From: Patescibacteria group bacterium
Lineage (GTDB): Bacteria > Patescibacteriota > Minisyncoccia > Minisyncoccales > 2-12-FULL-40-12
Assembly: GCA_038062035.1 (NCBI GenBank)
Contig: JBBTXV010000018.1
Location: 5,621-23,331 of the forward strand
Direction: 5' to 3'
DNA length: 17,711 nt
Below are positions 1-17,711 of the stretch, one piece after another (the stretch's first letter is position 1; every line of letters begins with the position of its first letter). The notes under the pieces are model-generated. The model was given only the letters and a program-made list of their open reading frames with translations. It ran no database searches and was not told the DNA's origin. Position numbers and translations under genes: made by a program.

Positions 1-2465
1 CGGGAATCCCTAATTTAGCAGAAGCAGAATATAAGAATATCCAAGAGGAAAAACCAGAAAGAAATCTTAGGCAAGAAGTAATCTTAAACGAAGAAAAAGA
101 AAGATTGGAGCCCATAAGAAAAGCTGAGGAGGCCCTAAAAATAATTGATGAAGAAAAAAGATTGGAGGAAATAAAAAGAATTCAAGAGGAAGAAAAAACA
201 AGGTTATTAGAAGAAGGAAAAAGGAAAGAAGAAATGGTCAAAAAAGCCAGGGAAGAGGCTGCTAAAAAGGTAGTGCAAGAAGCAAGGGAAAGATTGGAAA
301 AAATAAGAATGGAAAAAGAAGGAATACTTTTAGCGCAAGAAGAAGGAACAAAGAAAAGCCGAGAGAAAATTGAGCTTAAAACAGAAAAATTTTCCCTAGA
401 AAAAGAACTTCAAGAACTTTCAGAAAAGAAAAAGCCCTTGGAAAGGGAAGCAGAGGAAATATTAAAAGAAGAAGAACAGCTTAAAACTCATTTAGAAAGT
501 ATTTTAGTAAAAGAAAGAGAAGCAGAAAAAGAAGAGAAAAACATTGAAGGCAAAGAAAGGTTAGCGGCAACCCCGCAAGAGAAAAAAGAGCTGGAAACTC
601 AAAGATGGGCAAGTGAAGAAAAAAGGAAAAGAGTAGAAAAAGAAAGATGGGAAAAAGAAGAAAAAATAAATGAATTAAAAAAACACATAGAAAACGCTGG
701 ATTTAACATCCAGGAAGTTGAGGAAAAAGAAAGAGAAATAAAAAGAAAGCAAAAGGAAATCGCCCAAAGAGAAAGAATAATCGGAGCAGAAGAAGAAAAA
801 GAAGTCCTGGAAAGAGAACTTCAGGTTATATCAGAAAAAAAACAGCCCTTGGCATCAGAAAGGTCCCAGATTTTAGAAAAAGAACGTCAGTGTAAAAAAA
901 ACTTAAGGGATGTTTTAGACGAAGAACAAAGTATAGAAAGGGAGGAGGGCATAATTGAAGAAAAAGAAAATACAGCGACTGCCCCCGAAGAAAAAAAGGA
1001 ATTAGAAACTCAAAGATGGGCAATTGAAGAAAAAAGGAGGATGATAGAAAAAGAAAGATGGGAAAAAGAAGAAGAACTAAGCAAGATAAAAAAGGAGGTT
1101 GAAACGTACAATTTAAAGCACCAAAAAATCGTAGAAAGGGAAAGAGAGCTTCAAACAAAAATCGAAGAAATTAATCAGCTAATGGGGTTTGAAAAAAAAG
1201 CAGTGAAAAAAGGGACAGAATTCTCCGCCCACAATAAAAGCTATGAGAAACCAACTCAAACATTAAAAGAAAATGAGGAGCAAAAACAAAGCCAAAAACC
1301 AAATCAACCTTATCTGGAAGATATTAAAAAACAAGAAGAAATGGACGTTTTGAAGTTACAAAGAGAAGAGGAAGCAAGAAGACAAAGAGAGGAACAAAGA
1401 AAAAGGCAAGAACAAAAAGAATTAGAAGAATTCAAAAAATCTGAAATGAGCTTGCCGGGAAAAAAATGGATGGGGGAACCAGAAGAACAAAAAGAGAAAA
1501 ACGAAAGAGAAGAAAATATCAAAAGAAAAATATCTGAACTGCAAAATAAAGAAGAGATAGAAAGAAAAGAATTCTTGAAAAGAATTCGAGAAGAAAAGTC
1601 AAGGCAAGAGATATCTGCAATCTCCCCCCTTTCCCCATCTCAACCAATCGAAATCATTCGACCAATAAGAGAAAAGTCTTCCACCTTCGGAAAATTCTTC
1701 ACAAGACTCTTAGCTTTTATTTTAATAATCTCAATTTTGGCAGGTATTTCTTTTCTAATTTACTGGTTCTTTTTCCTCAGAAAGCCACCCCCGCCCCCAC
1801 CGACTATAATTTTAAAGTATTGTGAATTAGAAAATAAAGACATTTCAGAAAACGAATGGTCAAAAGAAAAGTGCGTACCGCCCCCTGAAATAACTATTCC
1901 CCGACCTAAGGTTGCTTATGATTTTATCAAAGATCTTGAAATCGCTGAGGAACAGGAAATTCCTCTTCGTTTAGCTGATCTTTTAGCCGGAGATTTAGAA
2001 AAAAATAAGACTTACTGGATCATAATAAAAGATACGAAAAAAAGAGAAGTTCCAAGTCTAGAAACTTTTTTGAAAGTTTTTCAAACTAAAACACCGGAAG
2101 GATTTTATGATAAATTAAATCCGGCTTTTACCTTATTCCTTTATTCCCAAGAACAAGGTAAAAGATTAGGCTTTATAGCTGAAATTAAAGAGGAGCATAA
2201 AGAGAGCTTTAGATCAGCTGTAAGGTTCTGGGAAGACACAATGGAAAATGATTTAGGACAATTCTTCGCTCTTCAAGGCAAAGAAGGGCCAGCCTTAAAG
2301 GAAAACTTTGGAAGGATTGCCTTTCGTAGTCTTGATATCAGATGCCAAACCTTCACCGAAAAAGATTTTGGGAGTTGCTACACTATAAGCAACAATTACT
2401 TTATTTTTACGCTCTCTCTTGAAAGCATGCAAAAAGCAATTGAAAATCTTCGTTTTGAACCGTAA
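1..2465 (+). CDS. E/K-rich coiled-coil membrane protein, 5'-partial; the frame is open to the window edge and the TTG at 105 is not the true start. Cytoplasmic charged coiled-coil, one TM helix, a poly-Pro linker, then a ~290-aa extracytoplasmic C-terminal domain of unknown function.
   Basis: The frame is open from nt 3 with no upstream stop. There are ~500 aa of E/K/R-rich heptad-like sequence, then one hydrophobic segment (FFTRLLAFILIISILAGISFLIYWFFFL) followed by PPPPPPP, then a mixed-composition globular C-terminus with 4 Cys. The stop is at 2463-2465. Confidence 0.6.
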   Translation, partial: GIPNLAEAEYKNIQEEKPERNLRQEVILNEEKERLEPIRKAEEALKIIDEEKRLEEIKRIQEEEKTRLLEEGKRKEEMVKKAREEAAKKVVQEARERLEKIRMEKEGILLAQEEGTKKSREKIELKTEKFSLEKELQELSEKKKPLEREAEEILKEEEQLKTHLESILVKEREAEKEEKNIEGKERLAATPQEKKELETQRWASEEKRKRVEKERWEKEEKINELKKHIENAGFNIQEVEEKEREIKRKQKEIAQRERIIGAEEEKEVLERELQVISEKKQPLASERSQILEKERQCKKNLRDVLDEEQSIEREEGIIEEKENTATAPEEKKELETQRWAIEEKRRMIEKERWEKEEELSKIKKEVETYNLKHQKIVERERELQTKIEEINQLMGFEKKAVKKGTEFSAHNKSYEKPTQTLKENEEQKQSQKPNQPYLEDIKKQEEMDVLKLQREEEARRQREEQRKRQEQKELEEFKKSEMSLPGKKWMGEPEEQKEKNEREENIKRKISELQNKEEIERKEFLKRIREEKSRQEISAISPLSPSQPIEIIRPIREKSSTFGKFFTRLLAFILIISILAGISFLIYWFFFLRKPPPPPPTIILKYCELENKDISENEWSKEKCVPPPEITIPRPKVAYDFIKDLEIAEEQEIPLRLADLLAGDLEKNKTYWIIIKDTKKREVPSLETFLKVFQTKTPEGFYDKLNPAFTLFLYSQEQGKRLGFIAEIKEEHKESFRSAVRFWEDTMENDLGQFFALQGKEGPALKENFGRIAFRSLDIRCQTFTEKDFGSCYTISNNYFIFTLSLESMQKAIENLRFEP
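400..1080 (+). repeat. Imperfect in-frame tandem duplication inside the coiled-coil gene: two ~270-bp units (~400-665 and ~808-1080) with a period of ~408 bp
   Basis: The protein segments EKELQELSEKKKPLEREAEEILKEEEQLKTHL...KKELETQRWASEEKRKRVEKERWEKEE and ERELQVISEKKQPLASERSQILEKERQCKKNL...KKELETQRWAIEEKRRMIEKERWEKEE align residue for residue. The DNA 583-662 versus 993-1078 is near-identical. Confidence 0.65.
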
Positions 2466-4407: not shown

Positions 4408-5553
4408 TTATCTATTAAAAGGATTACTAGCTCCCTTGACTTCAAAATGAAGGTGGCAACCAGTCGTTTTTCCGGTATTTCCTATTGTTCCAATTTGCTC
4501 ACCTGCTGAAACTATTTGTCCTGACTGAACCAAAACGGATCCAAGATGATAATAAGCAGTAACCACTTGGTTAGGATGAATAACAGAAATGCTGTTGCCC
4601 GCTCCAGCATTCCAACCGCCAGCCTTAGCCCTTACGATTTCTCCCCCGGCTGCAGCAAAAACAGGCCTGCCGCAACTATTTCCTCCAGGATGAGTCAAAT
4701 CTACGGCATTATACCAATGCAAACCCTGGCTGATTGTATAAGGAGAAGCCAAAGGAAGAATAAAGTAACTGGAGGGAAGAGATATTTGGTTTGGCGAGGA
4801 AGGATTTACGAACTTTTGCTGCTTTTTTGAAGGCGGGGGCATTATGCCATCGGGAATAATTAAAATATCGCCAATATAAATATCGCCCTCGCTTTCCAAT
4901 TCGTTAAAAGCGACGATCTTGCCAATATCGCTTTTATAATTTTTAGCAATCTGGCTTAAAGTTTCTCCTTTTTTAACGTAGTGTAAAATTCCAGAAACCG
5001 GCAAAATAATTAAAGCTTGGCCAGATTTCAGTTTGGATTTTTTGGTCAGGTTATTAGCCCAAATTAAGGTTTCCAAAGAAATACCAAATTTTTCAGCCAC
5101 TGAGACCAAGGTATCGTCCTCTCTGAGGGTATACTCGATAACCTCTTTTCTCAGACTTGATTCAATCCCTTGTCCTGTCAAAACACCAAAGCTATGAGAC
5201 AAAACCATAACTGGGGAAGAAACAGCCATTATGCTGTCTTTTTGAACCAAAACAAGATCTGAAGAATTGTCAAAAGAATTAGGGCCTAAAACAGAAAGAG
5301 ATGAAGTCAAAACAGGCTGATTGATTCCGTCAAAAGAAGAATCTCCTGGCGCATTTGAAATTTGGGCCTGGAGATTTTTGGTTAAAAGAGAAGAATCTAA
5401 GTTTTCTGAAAAAACAATGGGCCTAAAAGCTAAAGCCAATAACGAAATCGCTAAAATTAACCCAAAAAGGAGAAAAGGGTCTTTGAGAGATCCCTTTTTT
5501 TGTTCGTAGATTCGGCGAATTACCTTTTTGAACTTGGCTCCAAAGGAGCTCAA
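4408..5553 (-). CDS. Membrane-anchored peptidoglycan hydrolase with two LysM domains and a C-terminal M23 (LytM-type) metallopeptidase; TTG start
   Basis: There is an N-terminal TM helix (FLLFGLILAISLLALAF). The two LysM-like segments are YTLREDDTLVSVAEKFGISLETLIWAN and HYVKKGETLSQIAKNYKSDIGKIVAFN. The M23 motifs are HWYNAVD...HPGG and GCHLHFEV. The start codon is TTG (plus-strand CAA at 5551-5553) and the first in-frame ATG lies >100 codons downstream. Confidence 0.85.
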   Translation of the reverse strand: MSSFGAKFKKVIRRIYEQKKGSLKDPFLLFGLILAISLLALAFRPIVFSENLDSSLLTKNLQAQISNAPGDSSFDGINQPVLTSSLSVLGPNSFDNSSDLVLVQKDSIMAVSSPVMVLSHSFGVLTGQGIESSLRKEVIEYTLREDDTLVSVAEKFGISLETLIWANNLTKKSKLKSGQALIILPVSGILHYVKKGETLSQIAKNYKSDIGKIVAFNELESEGDIYIGDILIIPDGIMPPPSKKQQKFVNPSSPNQISLPSSYFILPLASPYTISQGLHWYNAVDLTHPGGNSCGRPVFAAAGGEIVRAKAGGWNAGAGNSISVIHPNQVVTAYYHLGSVLVQSGQIVSAGEQIGTIGNTGKTTGCHLHFEVKGASNPFNR

Positions 5554-5791
5554 GGATTTTTTAAGTGGTCTAAGAATAATTTTTGAGTTTTATTTTGCTC
5601 TCGACCTACTTATACGATAAGGATCACCCAAGAGCAATCCACTCTTTTAAGTTTAACAACCACTCAAGGGAAGTCAAGCATGTTATCCACAATTTTAAAA
5701 AGTGCTAAACCCCGCTAAAAGTCACTATTCTACACCTTGTTAAGGGTCCAAACGACTGGTACTAAGATTTCTAACAGGGTAAAATGAAAGA
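5554..5791. other. Unusually long (238 bp) divergent intergenic region between the M23 peptidase and rsmA. It contains a TAAAAT -10-like hexamer ~7 nt upstream of the rsmA ATG. It is a candidate for divergent promoters and/or a small RNA.
   Basis: No ORF longer than 30 codons is present. Every other spacer in the window is 0-25 bp. The TAAAAT is at 5779-5784. I did not find a tRNA cloverleaf. Confidence 0.3.
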
Positions 5792-6628
5792 ATGGAACTT
5801 GCTTCGTTAAGAGAAATAAAAAAGATACTCCAAAAAAACCGAACTTCTCCCTCAAAGGGCTTGGGTCAGAATTTTCTAATCAGTCGAACAGCTCTAAGTC
5901 AGTTAATTGGGGCTGCCGAGCTAAAAAGAGAAGATACCGTCCTGGAAATTGGGCCGGGAATCGGAGTTTTAACCTTAGAATTAGCCAAAAGAGTAAAAAA
6001 ATTAATTGCCGTAGAAAAAGACCGAAAAATGTGCCAAATTCTAAAAGAAACTTTGGAAGCTTATAAAAATTTGGAAATTATCAACGCTGATATTTTAAAA
6101 TTTAACCATAATAACTATAAACTAATAACTAAAAACTATAAACTGGTAGCAAATCTTCCTTATTACATTACATCACCTGTAATAAGAAAGTTCTTGGAAG
6201 TTGAAAAACCGCCTGATTTAATGGTTTTAATCGTGCAAAAAGAAGTCGCTCAAAGAATTTGCGCCAAGCCGCCCAAGCTCAATCTTCTGGCGGTCTCCGT
6301 TCAATTGTATGCCAATCCTAAGATTATCTCTTTTGTTCCGAAAAATTCTTTCTGGCCCAAACCCAAGGTTGATGGAGCAATCATTCAAATTACGCAAATA
6401 AAAAAAGATGGAAAAATAGATAATCAAACATTTTTTAAAATCGTGAAAGCAGGATTTTCCCAGCCAAGAAAACAAATTATTAACAACTTGTCTAAAAGGT
6501 TAAAATTAAATAAGATGCAAGCCGAATCTTGGTTAAAATCTTGTAAAATCGAACCTGAACAAAGGGCTGAAACATTAAGCTTATCTGATTGGATTCTGTT
6601 AACAGAAAAATTTGCTATAATAAAATAA
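5792..6628 (+). CDS. rsmA: 16S rRNA (adenine1518/1519-N6)-dimethyltransferase RsmA/KsgA
   Basis: The N-terminal GQNFL motif is present. The SAM-binding motif is LEIGPGIGVLT, the NLPYYITSPVI motif is present, and the C-terminus is helical. The stop TAA at 6626-6628 overlaps the next ATG. Confidence 0.9.
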   Translation: MELASLREIKKILQKNRTSPSKGLGQNFLISRTALSQLIGAAELKREDTVLEIGPGIGVLTLELAKRVKKLIAVEKDRKMCQILKETLEAYKNLEIINADILKFNHNNYKLITKNYKLVANLPYYITSPVIRKFLEVEKPPDLMVLIVQKEVAQRICAKPPKLNLLAVSVQLYANPKIISFVPKNSFWPKPKVDGAIIQITQIKKDGKIDNQTFFKIVKAGFSQPRKQIINNLSKRLKLNKMQAESWLKSCKIEPEQRAETLSLSDWILLTEKFAIIK

Positions 6629-9123
6629 TGCCAAAGAGAGCAATAGGATTTTTTATAATTTTCTCTACGTTTTTTTTATTATTTTCTCTTTTTTCCTCTT
6701 TTGATTTCGCTTTTGCTCAAGGAAGACAATTGGAAATTGATTATCCAAATGTTCCCGGAGCCCCTACTCCAAAAACAACCGCAACCTTATTACCCGATTA
6801 CGTTAAATACGTCTTTAATTTCGGGATAATAATTTTTGGCTTAATAGTTTTGGGCGTTTTAGTCGCAGGGGGAATTAAATATCTTTTATCCACGGGGAAA
6901 CCGGAAGCATTACAAGAAGCCAAGAATCAAATACTTGCCGCTTTTTTGGGAATAATCGTTTTACTTAGCTCTTATTTAATTCTCACCACTATTAATCCCC
7001 AGTTGGTAATTTTTAACATACCGGGACTAACTCAAATTACGGTCTTTCGCTGCACAACCGATGAAAGTTGTAATGGGCGTTTCGGGTGTGAAACGCCGGG
7101 CACTTGTCGTTGCGACCTTGGAATCTGTAGGGCAAAACTGGAACCAAGGGAAACAACTTTAATAGCTTACGAAATCCCCGTAGGGCAACTGATAGAAAAG
7201 GGTGTTCAGAACGAAAACAATATTAACGAGGTAACCATTTTACTTAACGAATTTGAAAAATTTTTGAAAAAGGAAATTCCCGTTGACCCGCCTTCTTATA
7301 GATTATCTGATTTAAGCAAGCATCTTGTGGGCCTAACCGAAGATTGTAGCTGTGATGCCACGGAGGGTATTTGCGCCACTCCTGAAGCCGGAGCCGGAGG
7401 AGTGGGCTGCTTTGGAAATCCTTGTAAAGATTCCGAGGAAGAAATCCAAAAAGCCGTGGATATTACCTCTCAAAAAATAAGAGAGCTTCAAGATTTTAAA
7501 AATGAAGTAAAAAAACAGTTTCAAATTTTTCTGCAAGAAGGAGAAAAATTTTTAAAAGCTAACGAAGAAATAAATGAGTGTATAGAAAATGGGAAACTTT
7601 TAACCTTGGCTGATTATTTAGCTACATCTCAATTTTTTACTGAGCAAGGATGGAAGACGCAACTCAAATCAAACCCATATTTCCCTAGCTCTGGAGGAGA
7701 CGATCTAACATTTTATTGCATAAAAGGAGGAACAATTTTTGACGCGCCGAGAACCAGCTCATTCAATATACCTGAGATTCCGTTAGAGTTAAACCTTGTA
7801 ATTCCAACCGAACCCTTGTTAAGTCCAGAACCATTATCTTGTCCGGCAATTCTCCCGTTAGGCGAAATGCTAGATAATATAACAATTGAATCATACACAG
7901 CCAACGAAGATCTGGAAAGCCTAATCGTTCTTATTGACTTACTCTCTAAAGAACTCCAAAAATTACTTGATTCTGTTTCAAGCTGCAGCAGGAAAGACGC
8001 ATGCAGCATTACTTGCGCAAAGGGACCAAATCCCTGTTTTCCTGAAAGACCCTGCGCTCAACCATGGGGAGTGGGATATCCATGTTTTCGCTGCAACCCT
8101 CTTTCCCTTCCGCCTTGTTTACTCTGTGGACCAGGCATGGGTCTTTCTCCAAATATTCAAGCCAGAGGGGGCGGATCATCTTGTCAGGGCAATCCTGATG
8201 CGCCATACCACGGCTCCCCTTGCCCTCGTGATGATATAGAAAAAACTTTACAAAAGATTAAACTCCTTGATAATGAAATTATTGAACTAATCCAAGAAAC
8301 AAAAAATGGATTTAATGCGAAGCCGTACATAATAGAGACTCCTAAGGAAAATATAAACTTGCTCCAAGGAATTAGAGGGTCAACGGCATTCTGTACCAGC
8401 GATGATATTAATAACCCGGATATTTTTTTGCTTAATTGCCTAGATGCTATAGGAAATGAAGGGCCGGACGGCAACATAATTGGCGACTGCGATCCTCAAA
8501 GCTTTTTTTGCTGTACCGCTGATAAAACAAAAGCGGGTTCAATAAGGCAATCTTTTCCAAGAGAAACACAAGAATTCAACTATTATACTGGCCCTCGTCT
8601 TGAAAACCCTTTTTCTCCTGCTGAAATTAGAAATAATGTTCCTTATTTTAGCCAAAAGGACCCTCTTTGGGCGGGAAGGTCTTATGGGTGCGGAGGGACA
8701 ACAATAAAATCCTCTGGTTGCGGCCCTACTTCTATGGCTATGGTGTTACGACATTACGGCAAAAATGTCGATCCTGTAATCACTGCTGAATGGTCATTAA
8801 GAAACAACTTTCGAGTTTGTAATGCCGGTACTGCCTGGAGTTTTTTCAACAGTATAGCTAAATCTTACGGTTTAAATGGGTGCAAACCTTTAAGCGTGGC
8901 GAATATTGACAATCTAATAGCTAAACTTTCCGATGGACCGATAATCGTTAGCGGCCGAGGAAATCCTCCGTATTCAAAAGGAGGACATTATATTGTTTTA
9001 ACCGGGGCAGATGAAAATTATGTTTATATAAATGATCCGGCACGACCTAAGTTAAAAAGAAAGCTAATTGACGAATTTAGAATAGCTGGGAGAGCAAGAT
9101 TCGCTTGCCAAGTTAAACAATAG
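6628..9123 (+). CDS. Secreted/membrane chimeric protein: Sec signal peptide, a VirB2/TrbC-type pilin-like TM hairpin, a ~520-aa Cys-rich ectodomain and a C-terminal C39-like (papain-fold) cysteine peptidase domain
   Basis: I prefer the start at ATG 6628 (MPKRAIGFFIIFSTFFLLFSLFSSFDFAFA|QG is a textbook signal peptide) over the tracked 6589 start, which overlaps rsmA. A conserved motif LEIDYPNVPGAPTPKTTATLLPDYVKYVF precedes two TM helices separated by STGKPEALQEAKNQ. Multiple Cys clusters follow. The C-terminus contains YFSQKDPLWAG...GCGPTSMAM...GGHYIVLTG. Confidence 0.75.
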   Translation: MPKRAIGFFIIFSTFFLLFSLFSSFDFAFAQGRQLEIDYPNVPGAPTPKTTATLLPDYVKYVFNFGIIIFGLIVLGVLVAGGIKYLLSTGKPEALQEAKNQILAAFLGIIVLLSSYLILTTINPQLVIFNIPGLTQITVFRCTTDESCNGRFGCETPGTCRCDLGICRAKLEPRETTLIAYEIPVGQLIEKGVQNENNINEVTILLNEFEKFLKKEIPVDPPSYRLSDLSKHLVGLTEDCSCDATEGICATPEAGAGGVGCFGNPCKDSEEEIQKAVDITSQKIRELQDFKNEVKKQFQIFLQEGEKFLKANEEINECIENGKLLTLADYLATSQFFTEQGWKTQLKSNPYFPSSGGDDLTFYCIKGGTIFDAPRTSSFNIPEIPLELNLVIPTEPLLSPEPLSCPAILPLGEMLDNITIESYTANEDLESLIVLIDLLSKELQKLLDSVSSCSRKDACSITCAKGPNPCFPERPCAQPWGVGYPCFRCNPLSLPPCLLCGPGMGLSPNIQARGGGSSCQGNPDAPYHGSPCPRDDIEKTLQKIKLLDNEIIELIQETKNGFNAKPYIIETPKENINLLQGIRGSTAFCTSDDINNPDIFLLNCLDAIGNEGPDGNIIGDCDPQSFFCCTADKTKAGSIRQSFPRETQEFNYYTGPRLENPFSPAEIRNNVPYFSQKDPLWAGRSYGCGGTTIKSSGCGPTSMAMVLRHYGKNVDPVITAEWSLRNNFRVCNAGTAWSFFNSIAKSYGLNGCKPLSVANIDNLIAKLSDGPIIVSGRGNPPYSKGGHYIVLTGADENYVYINDPARPKLKRKLIDEFRIAGRARFACQVKQ
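6731..7013 (+). other. VirB2/TrbC-like pilin hairpin module (conserved pre-helix motif plus two TM helices ending in TINPQL) within the 6628-9123 CDS
   Basis: The topology is signal peptide, short conserved motif, TM1, ~14-aa polar loop, TM2. It is paralogous to 12410-12700. Confidence 0.45.
8630..9075 (+). other. C39-like / papain-fold cysteine peptidase domain (Peptidase_C39_2-like) at the C-terminus of the 6628-9123 CDS
   Basis: The motifs are NVPYFSQKDPLWAGRSYGCGGTTIKSSGCGPTSMAMVLRHYG and later GGHYIVLTGADENYVYINDP. This is a putative Cys nucleophile followed by a His, in the order and spacing expected of YvpB-type C39-like domains. Confidence 0.55.
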
Positions 9124-12226: not shown

Positions 12227-13693
12227 ATGAAAGGTACGAGGTTTTTATTCGTTTTATTAATTATTGCTTTCTTGTTTTTTTTATCGGGTAATTTTGTCTC
12301 AGCTCAACAAGTATGCGATAAAGATCAAGATTGTCCAGGAGGTCAAAGCTGTATATCTGATCCTTGCAATACCGACCCTAACGCCCCAAAAATATGCGGT
12401 AAAGGCAGGGCTTTGGAAATCTGCTATCCTCAAATACCAGGAGTCGCTACACCAAAAACAACCGGTGAGCCCTTACCAGATTACATAAATTATATTTTCC
12501 GCTTCGCAATTGCTGCGATAGGCTTTGTTGTCCTTGGAGCTATGGTTTATGCCGGCGTCAGCTATTTTCTTTCATTCAACAACGCAGCGAAACTTCAAGA
12601 TGCCAAAGAAGGAATTTCTGCCGCTTTTTTGGGTGGCGTTATTTTGTTGGCGGCTTTTCTAATTTTTAATACGATAAATCCGCAATTAACTATTCTTGGA
12701 CCTCCAAAAGCTGATCTTCTGTGGGGGACAACTCAACCCGGAATATATATTTGTACTTATCCCGTAGATACAGGTTATTTAACTCAAATTAACCAAGACC
12801 TCAAAATCCAACCAACCTTCGGAGATCTAGGAGCAATTATTGATGCTTATACCAATGAAACGGATCCAAAAAGACAGGTTGAAGCAACTCAGGCATTACA
12901 AAGAATAATGTACAAGGACTCTTCGAATCTTTGCCAATTGCTCTTGAGCTCCACAAATCTCAGAACCCCGTTGCTGCCAAATTATACAATGTTCTCTATC
13001 CCAAAAGTATTCCCTGACCCGAATGATCCGCAAAAGCGCGTAGCAGAATTTCTTGAAGCGGTAATTTTGCATGAAAAAGATGATTTTAAGGGGGAACAAA
13101 AATTATACCCAATACCAAAAACGGTTGGAAGAAAACTTGTGCTCTTTGATCAAATCGACGGATTTAAAGCGGGCAACGGCTTAAATGACATCGGGGGAAG
13201 GGCTAAATCAATTACTCGTATAAAAAAGGCGGATGTGCCAGAAGCAAGCCCTCCAGGGATAACCTTATTCTCCTGCCCCAACTGGAATCAAAGCAAGGGC
13301 TTATGCCCAAAAGGATTGACTGGAACGCCTATCCCCCTTATTGATGCAAGTTTTGCCACTGACGGCGCTGACATTAAACTCTGGGGGAAAAGCGAACTTA
13401 AATCGGGCCAAGAATCTTTAGCTGAAAATGTCCGCTCTATTAGAATCACGCCATTGGGCAGTTTTCTTGCTATAGTATATGAAAAAGACGATGCAAAAGG
13501 AAATGGGGGAATTTTATATTCTGACGCTGCTGATATTAGGGGAAATAAATTGGGGCTTAAAATGTGTGGAACAAACTGTCCTTCGGGAATACTTCAATCC
13601 ACCCCTTTCTTCTTTATTCTTGACAGGATAAGAGGTATTGATTGTACCCCCTGTATAAATTCAATGACAGTTATTAAGGGAATAAAATTATGA
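12227..13693 (+). CDS. Secreted/membrane protein: signal peptide, a Cys-rich N-terminal knot, a VirB2/TrbC-like pilin hairpin (a paralog of the module in 6628-9123) and a ~330-aa ectodomain
   Basis: The signal peptide is MKGTRFLFVLLIIAFLFFLSGNFVSA|QQ, followed by CDKDQDCPGGQSCISDPC. The segment LEICYPQIPGVATPKTTGEPLPDYINYIF...AAFLGGVILLAAFLIFNTINPQL aligns with the 6731-7013 module. The stop overlaps the next start (ATGA at 13690-13693). Confidence 0.8.
   Translation: MKGTRFLFVLLIIAFLFFLSGNFVSAQQVCDKDQDCPGGQSCISDPCNTDPNAPKICGKGRALEICYPQIPGVATPKTTGEPLPDYINYIFRFAIAAIGFVVLGAMVYAGVSYFLSFNNAAKLQDAKEGISAAFLGGVILLAAFLIFNTINPQLTILGPPKADLLWGTTQPGIYICTYPVDTGYLTQINQDLKIQPTFGDLGAIIDAYTNETDPKRQVEATQALQRIMYKDSSNLCQLLLSSTNLRTPLLPNYTMFSIPKVFPDPNDPQKRVAEFLEAVILHEKDDFKGEQKLYPIPKTVGRKLVLFDQIDGFKAGNGLNDIGGRAKSITRIKKADVPEASPPGITLFSCPNWNQSKGLCPKGLTGTPIPLIDASFATDGADIKLWGKSELKSGQESLAENVRSIRITPLGSFLAIVYEKDDAKGNGGILYSDAADIRGNKLGLKMCGTNCPSGILQSTPFFFILDRIRGIDCTPCINSMTVIKGIKL
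12410..12700 (+). other. Second copy of the pilin-like hairpin module
   Basis: The shared pattern with the first copy is LEIxYPxxPGxxTPKTTxxxLPDYxxYxFxF - TM1 - loop - AAFLGxxxLLxxxLIxxTINPQL. Confidence 0.45.
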
Positions 13694-15605: not shown

Positions 15606-15619
15606 ACAAAAATAAAGAA

Positions 15620-15645
15620 GGAACGGTAAAACCGTTCCTTTTTTC
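15620..15645. terminator. Bidirectional rho-independent terminator between convergent genes
   Basis: The hairpin is GGAACGG-TAAAA-CCGTTCC (7-bp perfect stem) followed by TTTTTT on the plus strand. The minus strand reads the same stem followed by TTCTTTATTTTT. Confidence 0.65.
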
Positions 15646-15672
15646 AATGAATTCAATGAATTCAACGAATCA
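15642..15672. repeat. Short tandem repeat, about 3 copies of TTCAATGAA / TTCAACGAA
   Basis: The sequence ttcaatgaattcaatgaattcaacgaatcaacc was read directly. It overlaps the stop and last codons of the minus-strand SPFH gene. Confidence 0.4.
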
Positions 15673-16954
15673 ACCAGTAAATCATTGAACCAACCATGGA
15701 AAATATCGCCAGAAGACCTAAGGCCTTCTTACCCAAACTAACATCCTCTTCCGGGTTCGGTATTATCGCCGGGTATCTTGACTTTACTTTTCTTACTGGC
15801 GGAACTTGATCTTCAAGATGCTCTTGCGAGCTTGCTCCTCCTCCTGAAGACTCGTCTTTCTTCTCCGCCGCCTCGGATGATTTTTGCTCTGGCGTCACTC
15901 CTTCACCAACCGGTGGCATTCCTTTATAAGCAGCAATGATCTTCAAGATACCAGCGAGGACTCCGCCATCGCCTCCTTCAGCTCCCGGAGTTTCGATCCT
16001 CAGATAGGATTTTGACTCCATCGAAAGCTTACTCATTGTGCTATCTATTATAACTTTATGCCTCCGGTAGAACTCTTCGGGGCTTGCTTGAAGCTCCTTC
16101 TTAACTTGCTCTGGGGATTTACCTGCACTAGCCACAGATGCAATAACTGTCCCCATTATTTCTTCGGCCCTACCAGCCGCTATTAACTCTTGCTTTCTTT
16201 TAGCTGAAGCCGCCCTCTGATAATCTTCGGACAGATCAACCTCTTGAATCTCAATGCCCTTATCTGCTAATTTCATCCCCCACTTTTGTAAGGTTTCTTC
16301 AATCACCTTAGCTCCAGTTAAAAGACCCTCTTGGTTTTCTGCCCAAAGAGATGCGCCTTTAAGCTTAAGAAGCGTATCAAGGTCACGACTAGTGACAATT
16401 GAACGCATCTCTGCCTTTATTTTGGCGAGAACATCTTCAATTGGGGTCGGAGGAGCAATAAATAAAAAAGAATACGGATTGTCGATCCTTAACGTGATTA
16501 AAACCAAAACGTCCACTGGGATTCTTTCTGGCGGTGCGGTTTCAACAGCCGTAAGCTTAATCGCGTAAACCGCTGATTTCAAGAGAACGTGCCTCATCCT
16601 TAGTTCCTCATGAAACTCAGGGTTTGTATCACCGCTTTCTCTTAAACGAATATCGGTCCAGCGGTTCTTGTACTGGTGGATCGCATGAAATGGCCAAATG
16701 CCATACAAATACAATCCTCCAACAATACGCAAGCCCGTCCAAACTTCGTCTCTCTCCCTACGATCGGGGTCTTCTTCGTCAGTTAAAATCTTCCAACTAT
16801 GATCCATCCAGTGCTTTTCCCACGAAAAAAGGATCTTTTTGAACTTTCCGAAAGACACTACTGCCTTTGCGGTTCCTTCGTTAACCGTGGTAAAACATCT
16901 AATAAACCAGAAAAAAAACGCTAACGATATTCCGAGCGTTATCAGCCATTCCAT
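15662..16954 (-). CDS. SPFH / band-7 (stomatin-prohibitin-flotillin-HflK/C) domain membrane protein with both N- and C-terminal TM segments
   Basis: The N-terminal TM is followed by VNEGTAKAVVSFGKF, which is the typical SPFH domain entry. A long helical Ala/Glu/Lys-rich segment follows (YQRAASAKRKQELIAAGRAEE). The C-terminal hydrophobic segment is GLLAIFSMVGSMIYWLI. The RBS is GAGGTG, 7 nt before the ATG. Confidence 0.75.
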   Translation of the reverse strand: MEWLITLGISLAFFFWFIRCFTTVNEGTAKAVVSFGKFKKILFSWEKHWMDHSWKILTDEEDPDRRERDEVWTGLRIVGGLYLYGIWPFHAIHQYKNRWTDIRLRESGDTNPEFHEELRMRHVLLKSAVYAIKLTAVETAPPERIPVDVLVLITLRIDNPYSFLFIAPPTPIEDVLAKIKAEMRSIVTSRDLDTLLKLKGASLWAENQEGLLTGAKVIEETLQKWGMKLADKGIEIQEVDLSEDYQRAASAKRKQELIAAGRAEEIMGTVIASVASAGKSPEQVKKELQASPEEFYRRHKVIIDSTMSKLSMESKSYLRIETPGAEGGDGGVLAGILKIIAAYKGMPPVGEGVTPEQKSSEAAEKKDESSGGGASSQEHLEDQVPPVRKVKSRYPAIIPNPEEDVSLGKKALGLLAIFSMVGSMIYWLIR

Positions 16955-16957
16955 TTC

Positions 16958-17031
16958 TTTTCACCTCTTCTGTAGATTTTCAGTTCTCAAGGAACTATTA
17001 AAAATATATCATCTATTGAAATCTTTGTCAA
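16958..17031 (-). promoter_or_regulatory. Promoter/leader cassette copy 1 for the SPFH gene, read on the minus strand: -35 TTGACA, 17-bp spacer, extended -10 TGaTATATT, a short leader with a 5-bp hairpin, SD GAGGTG
   Basis: The minus-strand sequence is TTGACAaagatttcaatagaTGaTATATTtttaatAGTTCcttgaGAACTgaaaatctacagaaGAGGTGaaaagaaATG. Copy 2 at 17371-17444 is identical. Confidence 0.6.
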
Positions 17032-17107
17032 GCTTAGAAAATAAAGAGCGCGCTCGAAACGAAACGCGCTATTAACTTTCCAATTTGTATCACCTCTTAT
17101 TTTAAAA

Positions 17108-17368
17108 CTAATCTCTCTGGACCACACAAATGTCGTAATCAATTTTTCTCTCCTTACCATCTATCACAGTTTGAATCAATTCGGTCGAAGGATTTGCATC
17201 GCGCAATAAAATCTTCTCCGTTTTGCATCTTAGACAAATAAGGCGAATAAATAGACTGTCTTCAGTGATCTTTATTCTTCCCCCTATGCATTCTCGATGA
17301 AACATCTCTAAATCTTTAAAGCTAAATTCTTCATCTTTACTCTTTTTCCTCACTTCGATCGTGAACAT
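17108..17368 (-). CDS. Small hypothetical protein (~86 aa from the ATG at 17366-17368; the track's 89-aa version starts at a GTG inside the SD) with 5 Cys including a CLRC pair
   Basis: GAGGTG lies 6 nt upstream of the ATG (MFTIEV...), so the GTG at 17375-17377 is more likely part of the RBS. There is no TM helix. It is driven by the duplicated promoter cassette. Confidence 0.5.
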   Translation of the reverse strand: MFTIEVRKKSKDEEFSFKDLEMFHRECIGGRIKITEDSLFIRLICLRCKTEKILLRDANPSTELIQTVIDGKERKIDYDICVVQRD

Positions 17369-17370
17369 CT

Positions 17371-17444
17371 TTTTCACCTCTTCTGTAGATTTTCAGTTCT
17401 CAAGGAACTATTAAAAATATATCATCTATTGAAATCTTTGTCAA
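17371..17444 (-). promoter_or_regulatory. Promoter/leader cassette copy 2, identical to 16958-17031, driving the small Cys-containing protein
   Basis: There is a 74/74 identity with copy 1 at an offset of 413 bp. The -35/-10/hairpin/SD layout is the same. Confidence 0.6.
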
Positions 17445-17469: not shown

Positions 17470-17497
17470 TTGTTGCTTCTTCCTGTTATGTTATAAT
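17470..17497 (+). promoter_or_regulatory. Putative plus-strand promoter for the PrgI-like gene: TTGTTG -35, 16-bp spacer, extended -10 TGtTATAAT
   Basis: ttgttgcttcttcctgttaTGtTATAAT lies ~24 nt before the ATG at 17522. Confidence 0.4.
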
Positions 17498-17521
17498 AAG
17501 TGGAAGAAAAATAACTCCGGT

Positions 17522-17711
17522 ATGAATTTTCAGATTCCCCAATTTATTGAACAAGAAGCAAAAATTTTAGGGCCTTTTACTTTCAAACAAACTCTTTGGG
17601 TAGTCGGGGTCGGGATAATTATATTTTTTCTTTATTATTCTTTAGCCAAAACAAACCCTGTTCTTTTTATCATTATAACGGTATTTTTGGCTGGGACTGG
17701 CTCAGCTTTTG
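17522..17711 (+). CDS. PrgI-family (VirB3-like) small membrane protein, 3'-partial; it runs off the window
   Basis: MNFQIPQFIEQEAKILGPFTFKQTLWVVGVGIIIFFLYYSLAKTNPVLFIIITVFLAGTG matches the conserved PrgI N-terminus (a short amphipathic start, GPFTFKQ, then two TM helices). In monoderm conjugation systems PrgI precedes the VirB4-like ATPase. Confidence 0.55.
   Translation, partial: MNFQIPQFIEQEAKILGPFTFKQTLWVVGVGIIIFFLYYSLAKTNPVLFIIITVFLAGTGSAF

Follow-up and report, generated by a model that had tools for sequence, protein, structure and literature searches.

In a 17,711-nt stretch of a Patescibacteria group bacterium genome (assembly GCA_038062035.1, contig JBBTXV010000018.1, positions 5,621 to 23,331; we refer to the whole stretch as the window), a 74-nt sequence occurs twice on the minus strand, directly in front of two adjacent genes, one for a small protein of 86 amino acids (aa) and one for a 430-aa SPFH/Band-7 membrane protein. 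To judge from its letters, the repeat is a sigma-70-type promoter, a 5' untranslated region (5'UTR) of about 40 nt and a strong Shine-Dalgarno (SD) sequence, present twice. We think it likely that this is a duplicated or homogenised promoter-leader that re-armed the SPFH gene after an ancestral operon was split, which would leave two units with identical transcription and translation signals.

The two copies, at 16958-17031 and 17371-17444 (an offset of 413 nt), are direct repeats that agree at 74 of 74 positions. In 200 dinucleotide-preserving shuffles we found no chance match to the 74-mer, even when up to three mismatches were tolerated. The identity breaks off sharply at both ends. The repeat starts exactly with the -35 element, upstream of which the flanks differ (...GAAAT in one copy and ...TAAGC in the other), and its end is separated from the ATG by 2 nt in copy 1 and by 3 nt in copy 2; the flanks after GAGGTGAAAA differ again (AGATG and GAAATG).

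Both copies are present in a Hainich groundwater metagenome-assembled genome (MAG; GCA_964361475.1, contig CAYIAO010000005.1, our loci L001/L006; all loci compared carry such an L number). An ENA assembly made independently (L003) has both as well, and a third assembly, which comes from another well (L007), has the first copy whole and the second truncated by the end of the contig. Logan k-mer contigs break off 30 nt into the repeat, as is expected where a true repeat that is longer than the k-mer disrupts the de Bruijn graph. Given the three independent assemblies and the breaks in the k-mer contigs, we conclude that the repeat is not an assembly artefact.

Read on the minus strand, either copy consists of TTGACA, a spacer of 17 nt with TGa at its end, TATATT, six bases, the inverted repeat AGTTCcttgaGAACT (AGTTC-cttga-GAACT), GAAAATCTACAGAA and GAGGTGAAAA, in this order. 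Copy 1 (P1) heads the small-protein gene. Its -35 TTGACA is at 17439-17444, the TG of the extended -10 at 17423-17424, the -10 TATATT at 17416-17421, the inverted repeat at 17395-17409 and the SD GAGGTG at 17375-17380; the transcription start (+1) is predicted near 17408-17409, as starts usually lie about 7 nt past the -10. Copy 2 (P2) is laid out in the same way and heads the SPFH gene, with the -35 at 17026-17031, the -10 at 17003-17008, the inverted repeat at 16982-16996 and the SD at 16962-16967. A promoter scan scored both copies 11 out of 12, with the 17-nt spacer and the TG before the -10. In about 25 kb, made up of the window and 7.5 kb more of the contig, TTGACA is combined with an extended -10 nowhere else. 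Every relative we examined has TTGACA-N17-TGnTATAAT upstream of its small-protein/SPFH genes (the TGn in most of them), and an alignment of 10 relatives shows little or no variation in the -35 and -10 columns.

The SD is equally distinctive. We looked for matches to the anti-SD at positions -21 to -4 of the 13 gene starts in the window, and GAGGTGA in both copies gives a 7-nt match. The other 11 genes have a 4-nt match in two cases and none of at least 4 nt in nine. SD-independent initiation seems to be usual in this organism, and the two genes behind the cassettes depart from it. The preliminary description of this DNA had reported an identical 74-bp duplication at offset 413, a near-consensus sigma70 promoter (TTGACA-N17-TGaTATATT) in each copy and a GAGGTG SD that is rare here. 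All of this stands: the first on 74/74 identity, zero chance matches and independent assemblies, the second on the 11/12 score and positional conservation in relatives, and the third on a strong SD in only 2 of the 13 window genes. It had also placed a shared expression signal in front of both genes, and the cassettes do directly precede conserved start codons. Expression of the two genes would be high and presumably parallel, which is as far as we take co-regulation.

The two start codons and what lies between the genes matter for this placement. The small-protein gene (17108..17368, minus strand, MFTIEVRKK...) truly starts at the ATG at 17368 and not at the GTG at 17377, and the beginning MFTIEV is kept in ten homologues. 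The SPFH gene (15662..16954, minus strand) starts with MEW, and M(E/G)W is conserved among its relatives; the product matches PF01145 (E = 2.5e-6, 28.1 bits against a cut-off of 23.6) and has 63 homologues, with source names of the SPFH/HflC-like kind. Between the two genes, at 17037..17070 on the minus strand, is an intrinsic terminator for the small-gene unit. It consists of a GC-rich stem-loop, AGCGCGTTTCGTTTCGAGCGCGCT (17070-17047), and a T-run, CTTTATTTTC, downstream of the stop codon, and it folds at -18.1 kcal/mol (z = -2.2). With a terminator between them, each gene needs a promoter of its own. A scan found another terminator-like hairpin with a T-run after the SPFH gene (15618..15640, minus strand).

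The order of small gene then SPFH gene is conserved in nearly all loci with enough sequence, and it is found inside Patescibacteria loci that resemble type IV secretion systems (T4SS), with genes for PrgI/VirB3, TraC-like proteins, VirB4/TraG-type ATPase, TrbL/VirB6 and pilins (VirB2-like). In L015 the T4SS-like locus adjoins dnaA and dnaN. In an operon type (L008, L012, L023, L024, L031, L032, L037) a single promoter/leader stands before the small gene, and the gap of 20-31 nt to the SPFH gene holds an SD of its own. The SPFH SD region in L012 (and in L046, described below) is GGAGGTGAAAAGAAATG, as at the ribosome-binding site (RBS) of the window's SPFH gene. In a split type, to which the window belongs together with L015, L022, L028, L029 and L034, the small-gene unit closes with a terminator, and the next gene is preceded by a second promoter/leader. 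The identity between P1 and P2 is 75% over 28 nt in L015, 91% over 57 nt in L022, 77% over 52 nt in L028, 94% over 34 nt in L029, 91% over 90 nt in L034 and 100% over 74 nt in the window. Loci without the small gene (L038, L039-41, L045, L046, L047) have the promoter/leader directly before SPFH. These are the closest SPFH relatives of the window, at 56-59% identity. A remnant of the small-gene SD survives in L038; in L039 and L046 the fusion is at the RBS.

Two of the split loci have features of their own. In L029 an IS481-like transposase gene (930-1850, minus strand; rve, HTH_28, LZ_Tnp_IS481) lies between the small gene and an SPFH gene with its own second promoter/leader. In L034 (2277-2669) the small gene is apparently frameshifted and the region upstream of it is without -35 and -10, and the leader of the next gene shows 91% identity along a stretch of 90 nt that takes in the first codons ATGTTTAC. 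This locus looks like a decaying small gene beside a P2 that would have been converted.

The relatives also bear on how such copies evolve. Within the clade of L015, L022 and L028, P1 orthologues are alike at 0.86 and P2 orthologues likewise at 0.86. Within L015, P1 and P2 are alike at only 0.72, which is below the likeness of orthologues, and thus the duplication in this clade is old. The P1 of L022 departs from this pattern. It is alike at 0.90-0.91 to the P2 of L022 and L028 and at 0.78-0.81 to the P1 of L015 and L028; it is P2-like over the promoter and the first hairpin, and the leader downstream is still that of P1. By its pattern of similarity, we take this to be a signature of gene conversion.

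Traces of the split may remain in the window. A stretch at 17078..17098 (minus strand), AAGAGGTGATACAAATTGGAA, matches the RBS and start of the window's SPFH gene, AAGAGGTGAAAAGAAATGGAA, at 17 of 21 positions, a score reached by 19 of 2000 shuffles. It begins 12 nt after the small-gene stop, where relatives of the operon type have the SPFH RBS, and it consists of an SD-like AAGAGGTGA and then TTG-GAA, which now heads a 3-codon open reading frame before the terminator. From the shuffle test and the RBS position in relatives, we tentatively consider it a probable relic of the ancestral operon junction. Beyond the relic RBS, the terminator region and the 5' part of the SPFH coding sequence showed no significant homology (511 of 2000 shuffles scored as high). 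The right end of the 74-nt repeat (GAGGTGAAAA) falls in an RBS that is already similar for both genes in relatives, and this similarity could have guided the rearrangement.

Putting these pieces together, the ancestor would have had the small gene and SPFH in one operon behind a single orthologous promoter/leader, as most relatives do. In the lineage of the window the operon would have been split, and SPFH re-armed with a copy of the operon's own promoter/leader. P1 would start a short transcript for the Zn-ribbon-like small protein, ending at the intrinsic terminator, and P2, right after that terminator, would start the SPFH transcript, ending at the terminator at 15640-15618. The duplication would restore or maintain strong SPFH expression after the terminator had uncoupled SPFH from the small gene, and both genes would stay under whatever acts on the shared promoter. 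As to the route, we infer either a recent duplication or gene conversion between the copies from the 74/74 identity.

This would be a variation on a known kind of arrangement. Internal or duplicated promoters split operons, and paralogous promoters can be kept alike by gene conversion, as happens with the promoters of rRNA operons. The locus resembles these in that one promoter sequence heads more than one unit, and in that a terminator plus a new promoter decouples the downstream gene; in L022, as among paralogous promoters, copies within a genome are more alike than orthologues between genomes. It differs from them in having two copies only, 413 bp apart and before non-homologous genes, and in a duplicated unit that takes in the whole 5'UTR and SD, with a right boundary in an already similar RBS.

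Several points weigh against a re-armed SPFH gene. The nearest relatives, at no more than 59% identity for SPFH and 50% for the small protein, are too distant to date the split or to tell a recent duplication from gene conversion. The junction relic is weak evidence (21 nt, p about 0.01). For L022 and L028 the contig stops within the gene that follows P2, which is there only a putative SPFH gene. The transcription starts, the efficiency of the terminator and the activity of the promoters are read from consensus and conservation only. Finally, the window's leader has lost both of the covarying hairpins that its relatives carry, as described next, and the cassette may work unlike the family norm.

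In the window, the inverted repeat AGTTC-N5-GAACT with 0 mismatches is found only in the two cassettes, at 16982-16996 and 17395-17409. Folded from the predicted +1, it gives a stem of 5-6 bp (-4.2 kcal/mol, z = +0.07), and 94 of 200 shuffled sequences did equally well. The leader together with coding sequence also folds no better than shuffles (z = +1.4). A search of the whole window against Rfam 15, on both strands and with E <= 1, had no matches. We dropped a structured leader as a reading for the window, as the folding was no better than that of shuffles with or without the coding sequence.

The leaders of the relatives fold differently. A first hairpin, hp1 (TCAAGGAA-loop-TTCCTTGA), starts 6-8 nt after the -10 and falls within the leader's first 34 nt. 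Of 17 leaders from relatives, 16 have it as their minimum-energy fold (-5.6 to -14.3 kcal/mol, z from -1.6 to -5.4), with a loop of 3 to about 10 nt and G.U pairs on the sense strand. Six of its eight pairs changed on both sides, 90% are paired, none of 500 shuffles was equal to it, and it beats all slid controls; these values were measured on a covariance-model alignment, which leans towards the structure of the model. We used that alignment in place of a MAFFT alignment, on which RNAalifold gave no structure for hp1, because groups with long and short loops were misaligned there. In many relatives a second hairpin, hp2 (CTGGA-UAAU-UCCAG type, with a conserved UAAU loop), has five of seven pairs changed on both sides and 98% paired on a plain MAFFT alignment. 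It is missing from the 74-mer and from L024, L029, L031 and L037. In the window rows MAFFT aligns only TTCCTTG with the 3' arm of hp1, with the 5' arm and the loop deleted, and in the covariance-model alignment both arms of hp1 are gaps. The small hairpin at about the transcription start that had been noted earlier is therefore half right: the inverted repeat is present at the predicted +1, but it folds like shuffles and the hairpins of the family are deleted. The palindrome may serve as a minimal 5' stem or as an operator, or it may have arisen as a by-product when hp1 was deleted.

Leaders with hp1/hp2 are found at L008:3925-3975 and also in L012, L015, L020, L022, L028, L034, L039 and L046. 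We regard hp1 plus hp2, on the strength of their covariation, as a candidate new cis-regulatory RNA motif; our Rfam scan covered the window, which lacks both. The reference list of a review (PMC3997798) names 5'-terminal stem-loops as stabilisers of mRNA, for example in ompA, papA and aprE. As in those leaders, the relatives have a stable, covarying hairpin at the predicted +1 and then a strong SD. The window cassette is unlike them, having lost the family hairpin and kept a marginal stem of 5-6 bp. A wider idea, which we find doubtful, is that the leader unit of the relatives is a family-specific cis-regulatory unit of Patescibacteria T4SS-like loci. Its hp1/hp2 would be read by a trans-acting factor, possibly the Zn-ribbon protein itself, and lineages with a split operon would repeatedly copy or gene-convert the whole unit and so keep SPFH under the same control. 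The window would then be a minimised version, with the TTCCTTG half-site built into a new short palindrome.

We also looked for the module elsewhere. We built a covariance model (R1) from the promoter-plus-hairpin regions of ten relatives and scanned 145 kb of loci with it. All P1 and P2 elements came up, one for each gene or gene pair, the two copies in the window among them (26.6 bits, E = 0.02); no other match had an E-value under 0.1. There was no further copy of the cassette, exact or diverged, in the 25-kb source contig, and searching the relatives' cassettes against their own loci with blastn-short (neighbourhoods of 6-8 kb) gave no extra copies. The module thus goes with the small gene and SPFH and not with the surrounding T4SS genes. 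Scanning 185,579 species genomes, which do not include the source MAG, for a -10, a gap of 4-8 nt and the palindrome (TATAWT-N4-8-AGTTCCTTGAGAACT) gave four matches in unrelated phyla (Treponema, Ignavibacterium, Eubacteriales, Nitrospina), which is consistent with chance, and the same pattern had no matches in viral contigs. The portable module or regulon marker proposed in the preliminary description found no support within the scope of these searches, as neither the 25-kb contig nor the relatives' neighbourhoods held a further copy.

These results bear on the other ways in which the repeat might be explained. One that is compatible with the promoter explanation is a shared operator, in which AGTTC-N5-GAACT at the predicted +1 would be bound by a dimeric repressor and mark a regulon with more members elsewhere. 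A perfect 5+5 inverted repeat does sit exactly at the predicted start in both copies, and nowhere else in the window at 0 mismatches. We nevertheless consider this unlikely, as the 25-kb contig holds no other cassette, the only hits were the four chance matches among species genomes and none in viral contigs, and the equivalent position in relatives is a hairpin. Its variable loop, its sense-strand G.U pairs and its compensatory changes fit an RNA stem and not a protein operator with fixed spacing. A further possibility is that the cassette works chiefly through an RNA hairpin at its 5' end that stabilises or regulates the message. The leaders of relatives are the best argument for it, with hp1 forming in 16 of 17 and its pairs covarying, and with hp2 covarying even more clearly, and ompA, papA and aprE from the reference list of PMC3997798 are precedents. 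The window itself is the argument against it (a stem at z = +0.07, z = +1.4 with coding sequence, the hp1 arm and loop deleted, no Rfam match), and for this cassette we hold the idea to be quite unlikely.

Direct repeats could also act as a recombination substrate. By RecA-mediated recombination the small gene and its terminator would be lost (or, in a Campbell-type event, gained), and the population would become heterogeneous. The product, a cassette followed by SPFH, would have the arrangement that is seen in L038, L039-41, L045, L046 and L047. However, a 74-bp repeat recombines only at low frequency, no contig of the Hainich assemblies has the deleted form, and the small-gene SD remnant in L038 and the RBS fusion in L039 and L046 point to other routes of deletion. 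This makes it very unlikely. We give almost no credence to the last possibility, that the assembly created the repeat, or that it is a neutral and dead leftover from a local duplication, copy 2 being silent. The data are metagenomic with a coverage of only 7-11x, which would favour an artefact, but the structure is the same in three independent assemblies and the k-mer contigs break as they would at a real repeat. A silent copy 2 would leave a conserved SPFH gene with a strong SD without a promoter, given the terminator upstream, and the same architecture recurs in other lineages.

The small protein has its own points of interest. His24, Cys27, Cys45 and Cys48 are invariant in its alignment, and it is hydrophilic throughout, without a hydrophobic segment. 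An AlphaFold (AF2) model has a pLDDT of 88 and is mainly beta-strand with a Zn-ribbon-like element. The protein has no Pfam match at E <= 1, and a Foldseek search of the PDB with the model found nothing better than E = 0.4 apart from local zinc-ribbon similarity. Homologues were found in Patescibacteria only. The pair resembles SPFH (stomatin/HflK/C)-NfeD pairs in that a small gene is conserved directly upstream of the SPFH gene and often co-transcribed with it. Unlike NfeD, the small protein has no PF01957 domain and no match to a PDB fold, and it has the invariant H-C-C-C motif; in contrast to such pairs, the small gene is missing altogether from the closest SPFH relatives. The small protein is not NfeD, and an NfeD-like role, which had been raised earlier, is not borne out by domain, hydrophobic segment or structural match. 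The conserved adjacency suggests a partnership between the small protein and SPFH, although the closest SPFH relatives do without the small gene.

Downstream of the 17371-17444 copy on the plus strand, and outside the repeat, a divergent neighbour marks the T4SS-like context. It is a PrgI/VirB3-like gene that begins at 17522 and is cut by the window end (feature 17470..17711), with a promoter-like TTGTTG-N16-TATAAT at 17470-17497. Its match to PF12666 (PrgI; E = 8e-6, 26.8 bits) is just below the cut-off of 27, and L003 holds a PrgI product of 138 aa. On its plus strand the repeat has only a weak promoter-like site (9/12). We rejected a plus-strand role for the repeat, given this low score and the better promoter that the PrgI-like gene has of its own.

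A paper on Patescibacteria T4SS loci (PMC12102498) describes the same context genes as here (PrgI/VirB3, TraC-like, VirB4, VirB6/TrbL and VirB2-like pilins). Unlike our account of the locus, its text is without SPFH, stomatin, band 7, flotillin or promoters, and the small-protein/SPFH pair with its leader appears not to be described there. Our literature search found no paper joining Patescibacteria, SPFH and type IV.

We made some other observations in the window and in relatives. At 105-2465 (plus strand) the window has a gene for a very K/E-rich protein of 786-853 aa, which has no Pfam match. It contains internal repeats (459-693 and 870-1104, with a 411-nt period and 70% identity), and the gene calls in this region differ between the NCBI and ENA versions of the contig. 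Two 63-nt segments on the plus strand, 6719-6781 and 12402-12464, are 71% identical and lie in genes for an 844-aa C39-peptidase/T4SS-pilin protein and a 488-aa T4SS-pilin-like protein, which suggests, from the similarity itself, paralogous pilin-domain modules. The VirB4/TraG-type ATPase gene of a Shapirobacteria-like relative (L010:1-1790, minus strand) has an intein (Intein_splicing and LAGLIDADG_3), and the otherwise identical locus L011 is without it. L044 and L043 differ at about 5100-7300, where the NCBI copy has no PNPase gene call and the ENA copy has a PNPase of 697 aa; this is possibly a frameshift or a difference in gene calling.

To our knowledge, there is almost no experimental knowledge of promoters, leaders and operon organisation in Patescibacteria. 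Nothing is overturned by this locus. It would be an ordinary regulatory duplication, which makes a useful annotation and a modest lead. As we read it, it is a clean natural example of a near-consensus extended -10 promoter and a rare strong SD being copied, with the downstream gene kept expressed after a split, and the same solution is seen in several lineages, some of which bear traces of gene conversion. What is more novel is found in the relatives: two covarying leader hairpins that are specific to the small-protein/SPFH genes. The locus also points to a conserved partnership between the small protein and SPFH within T4SS-like loci, and the cassette could serve as a strong expression signal in these organisms, whose genetics is just emerging.

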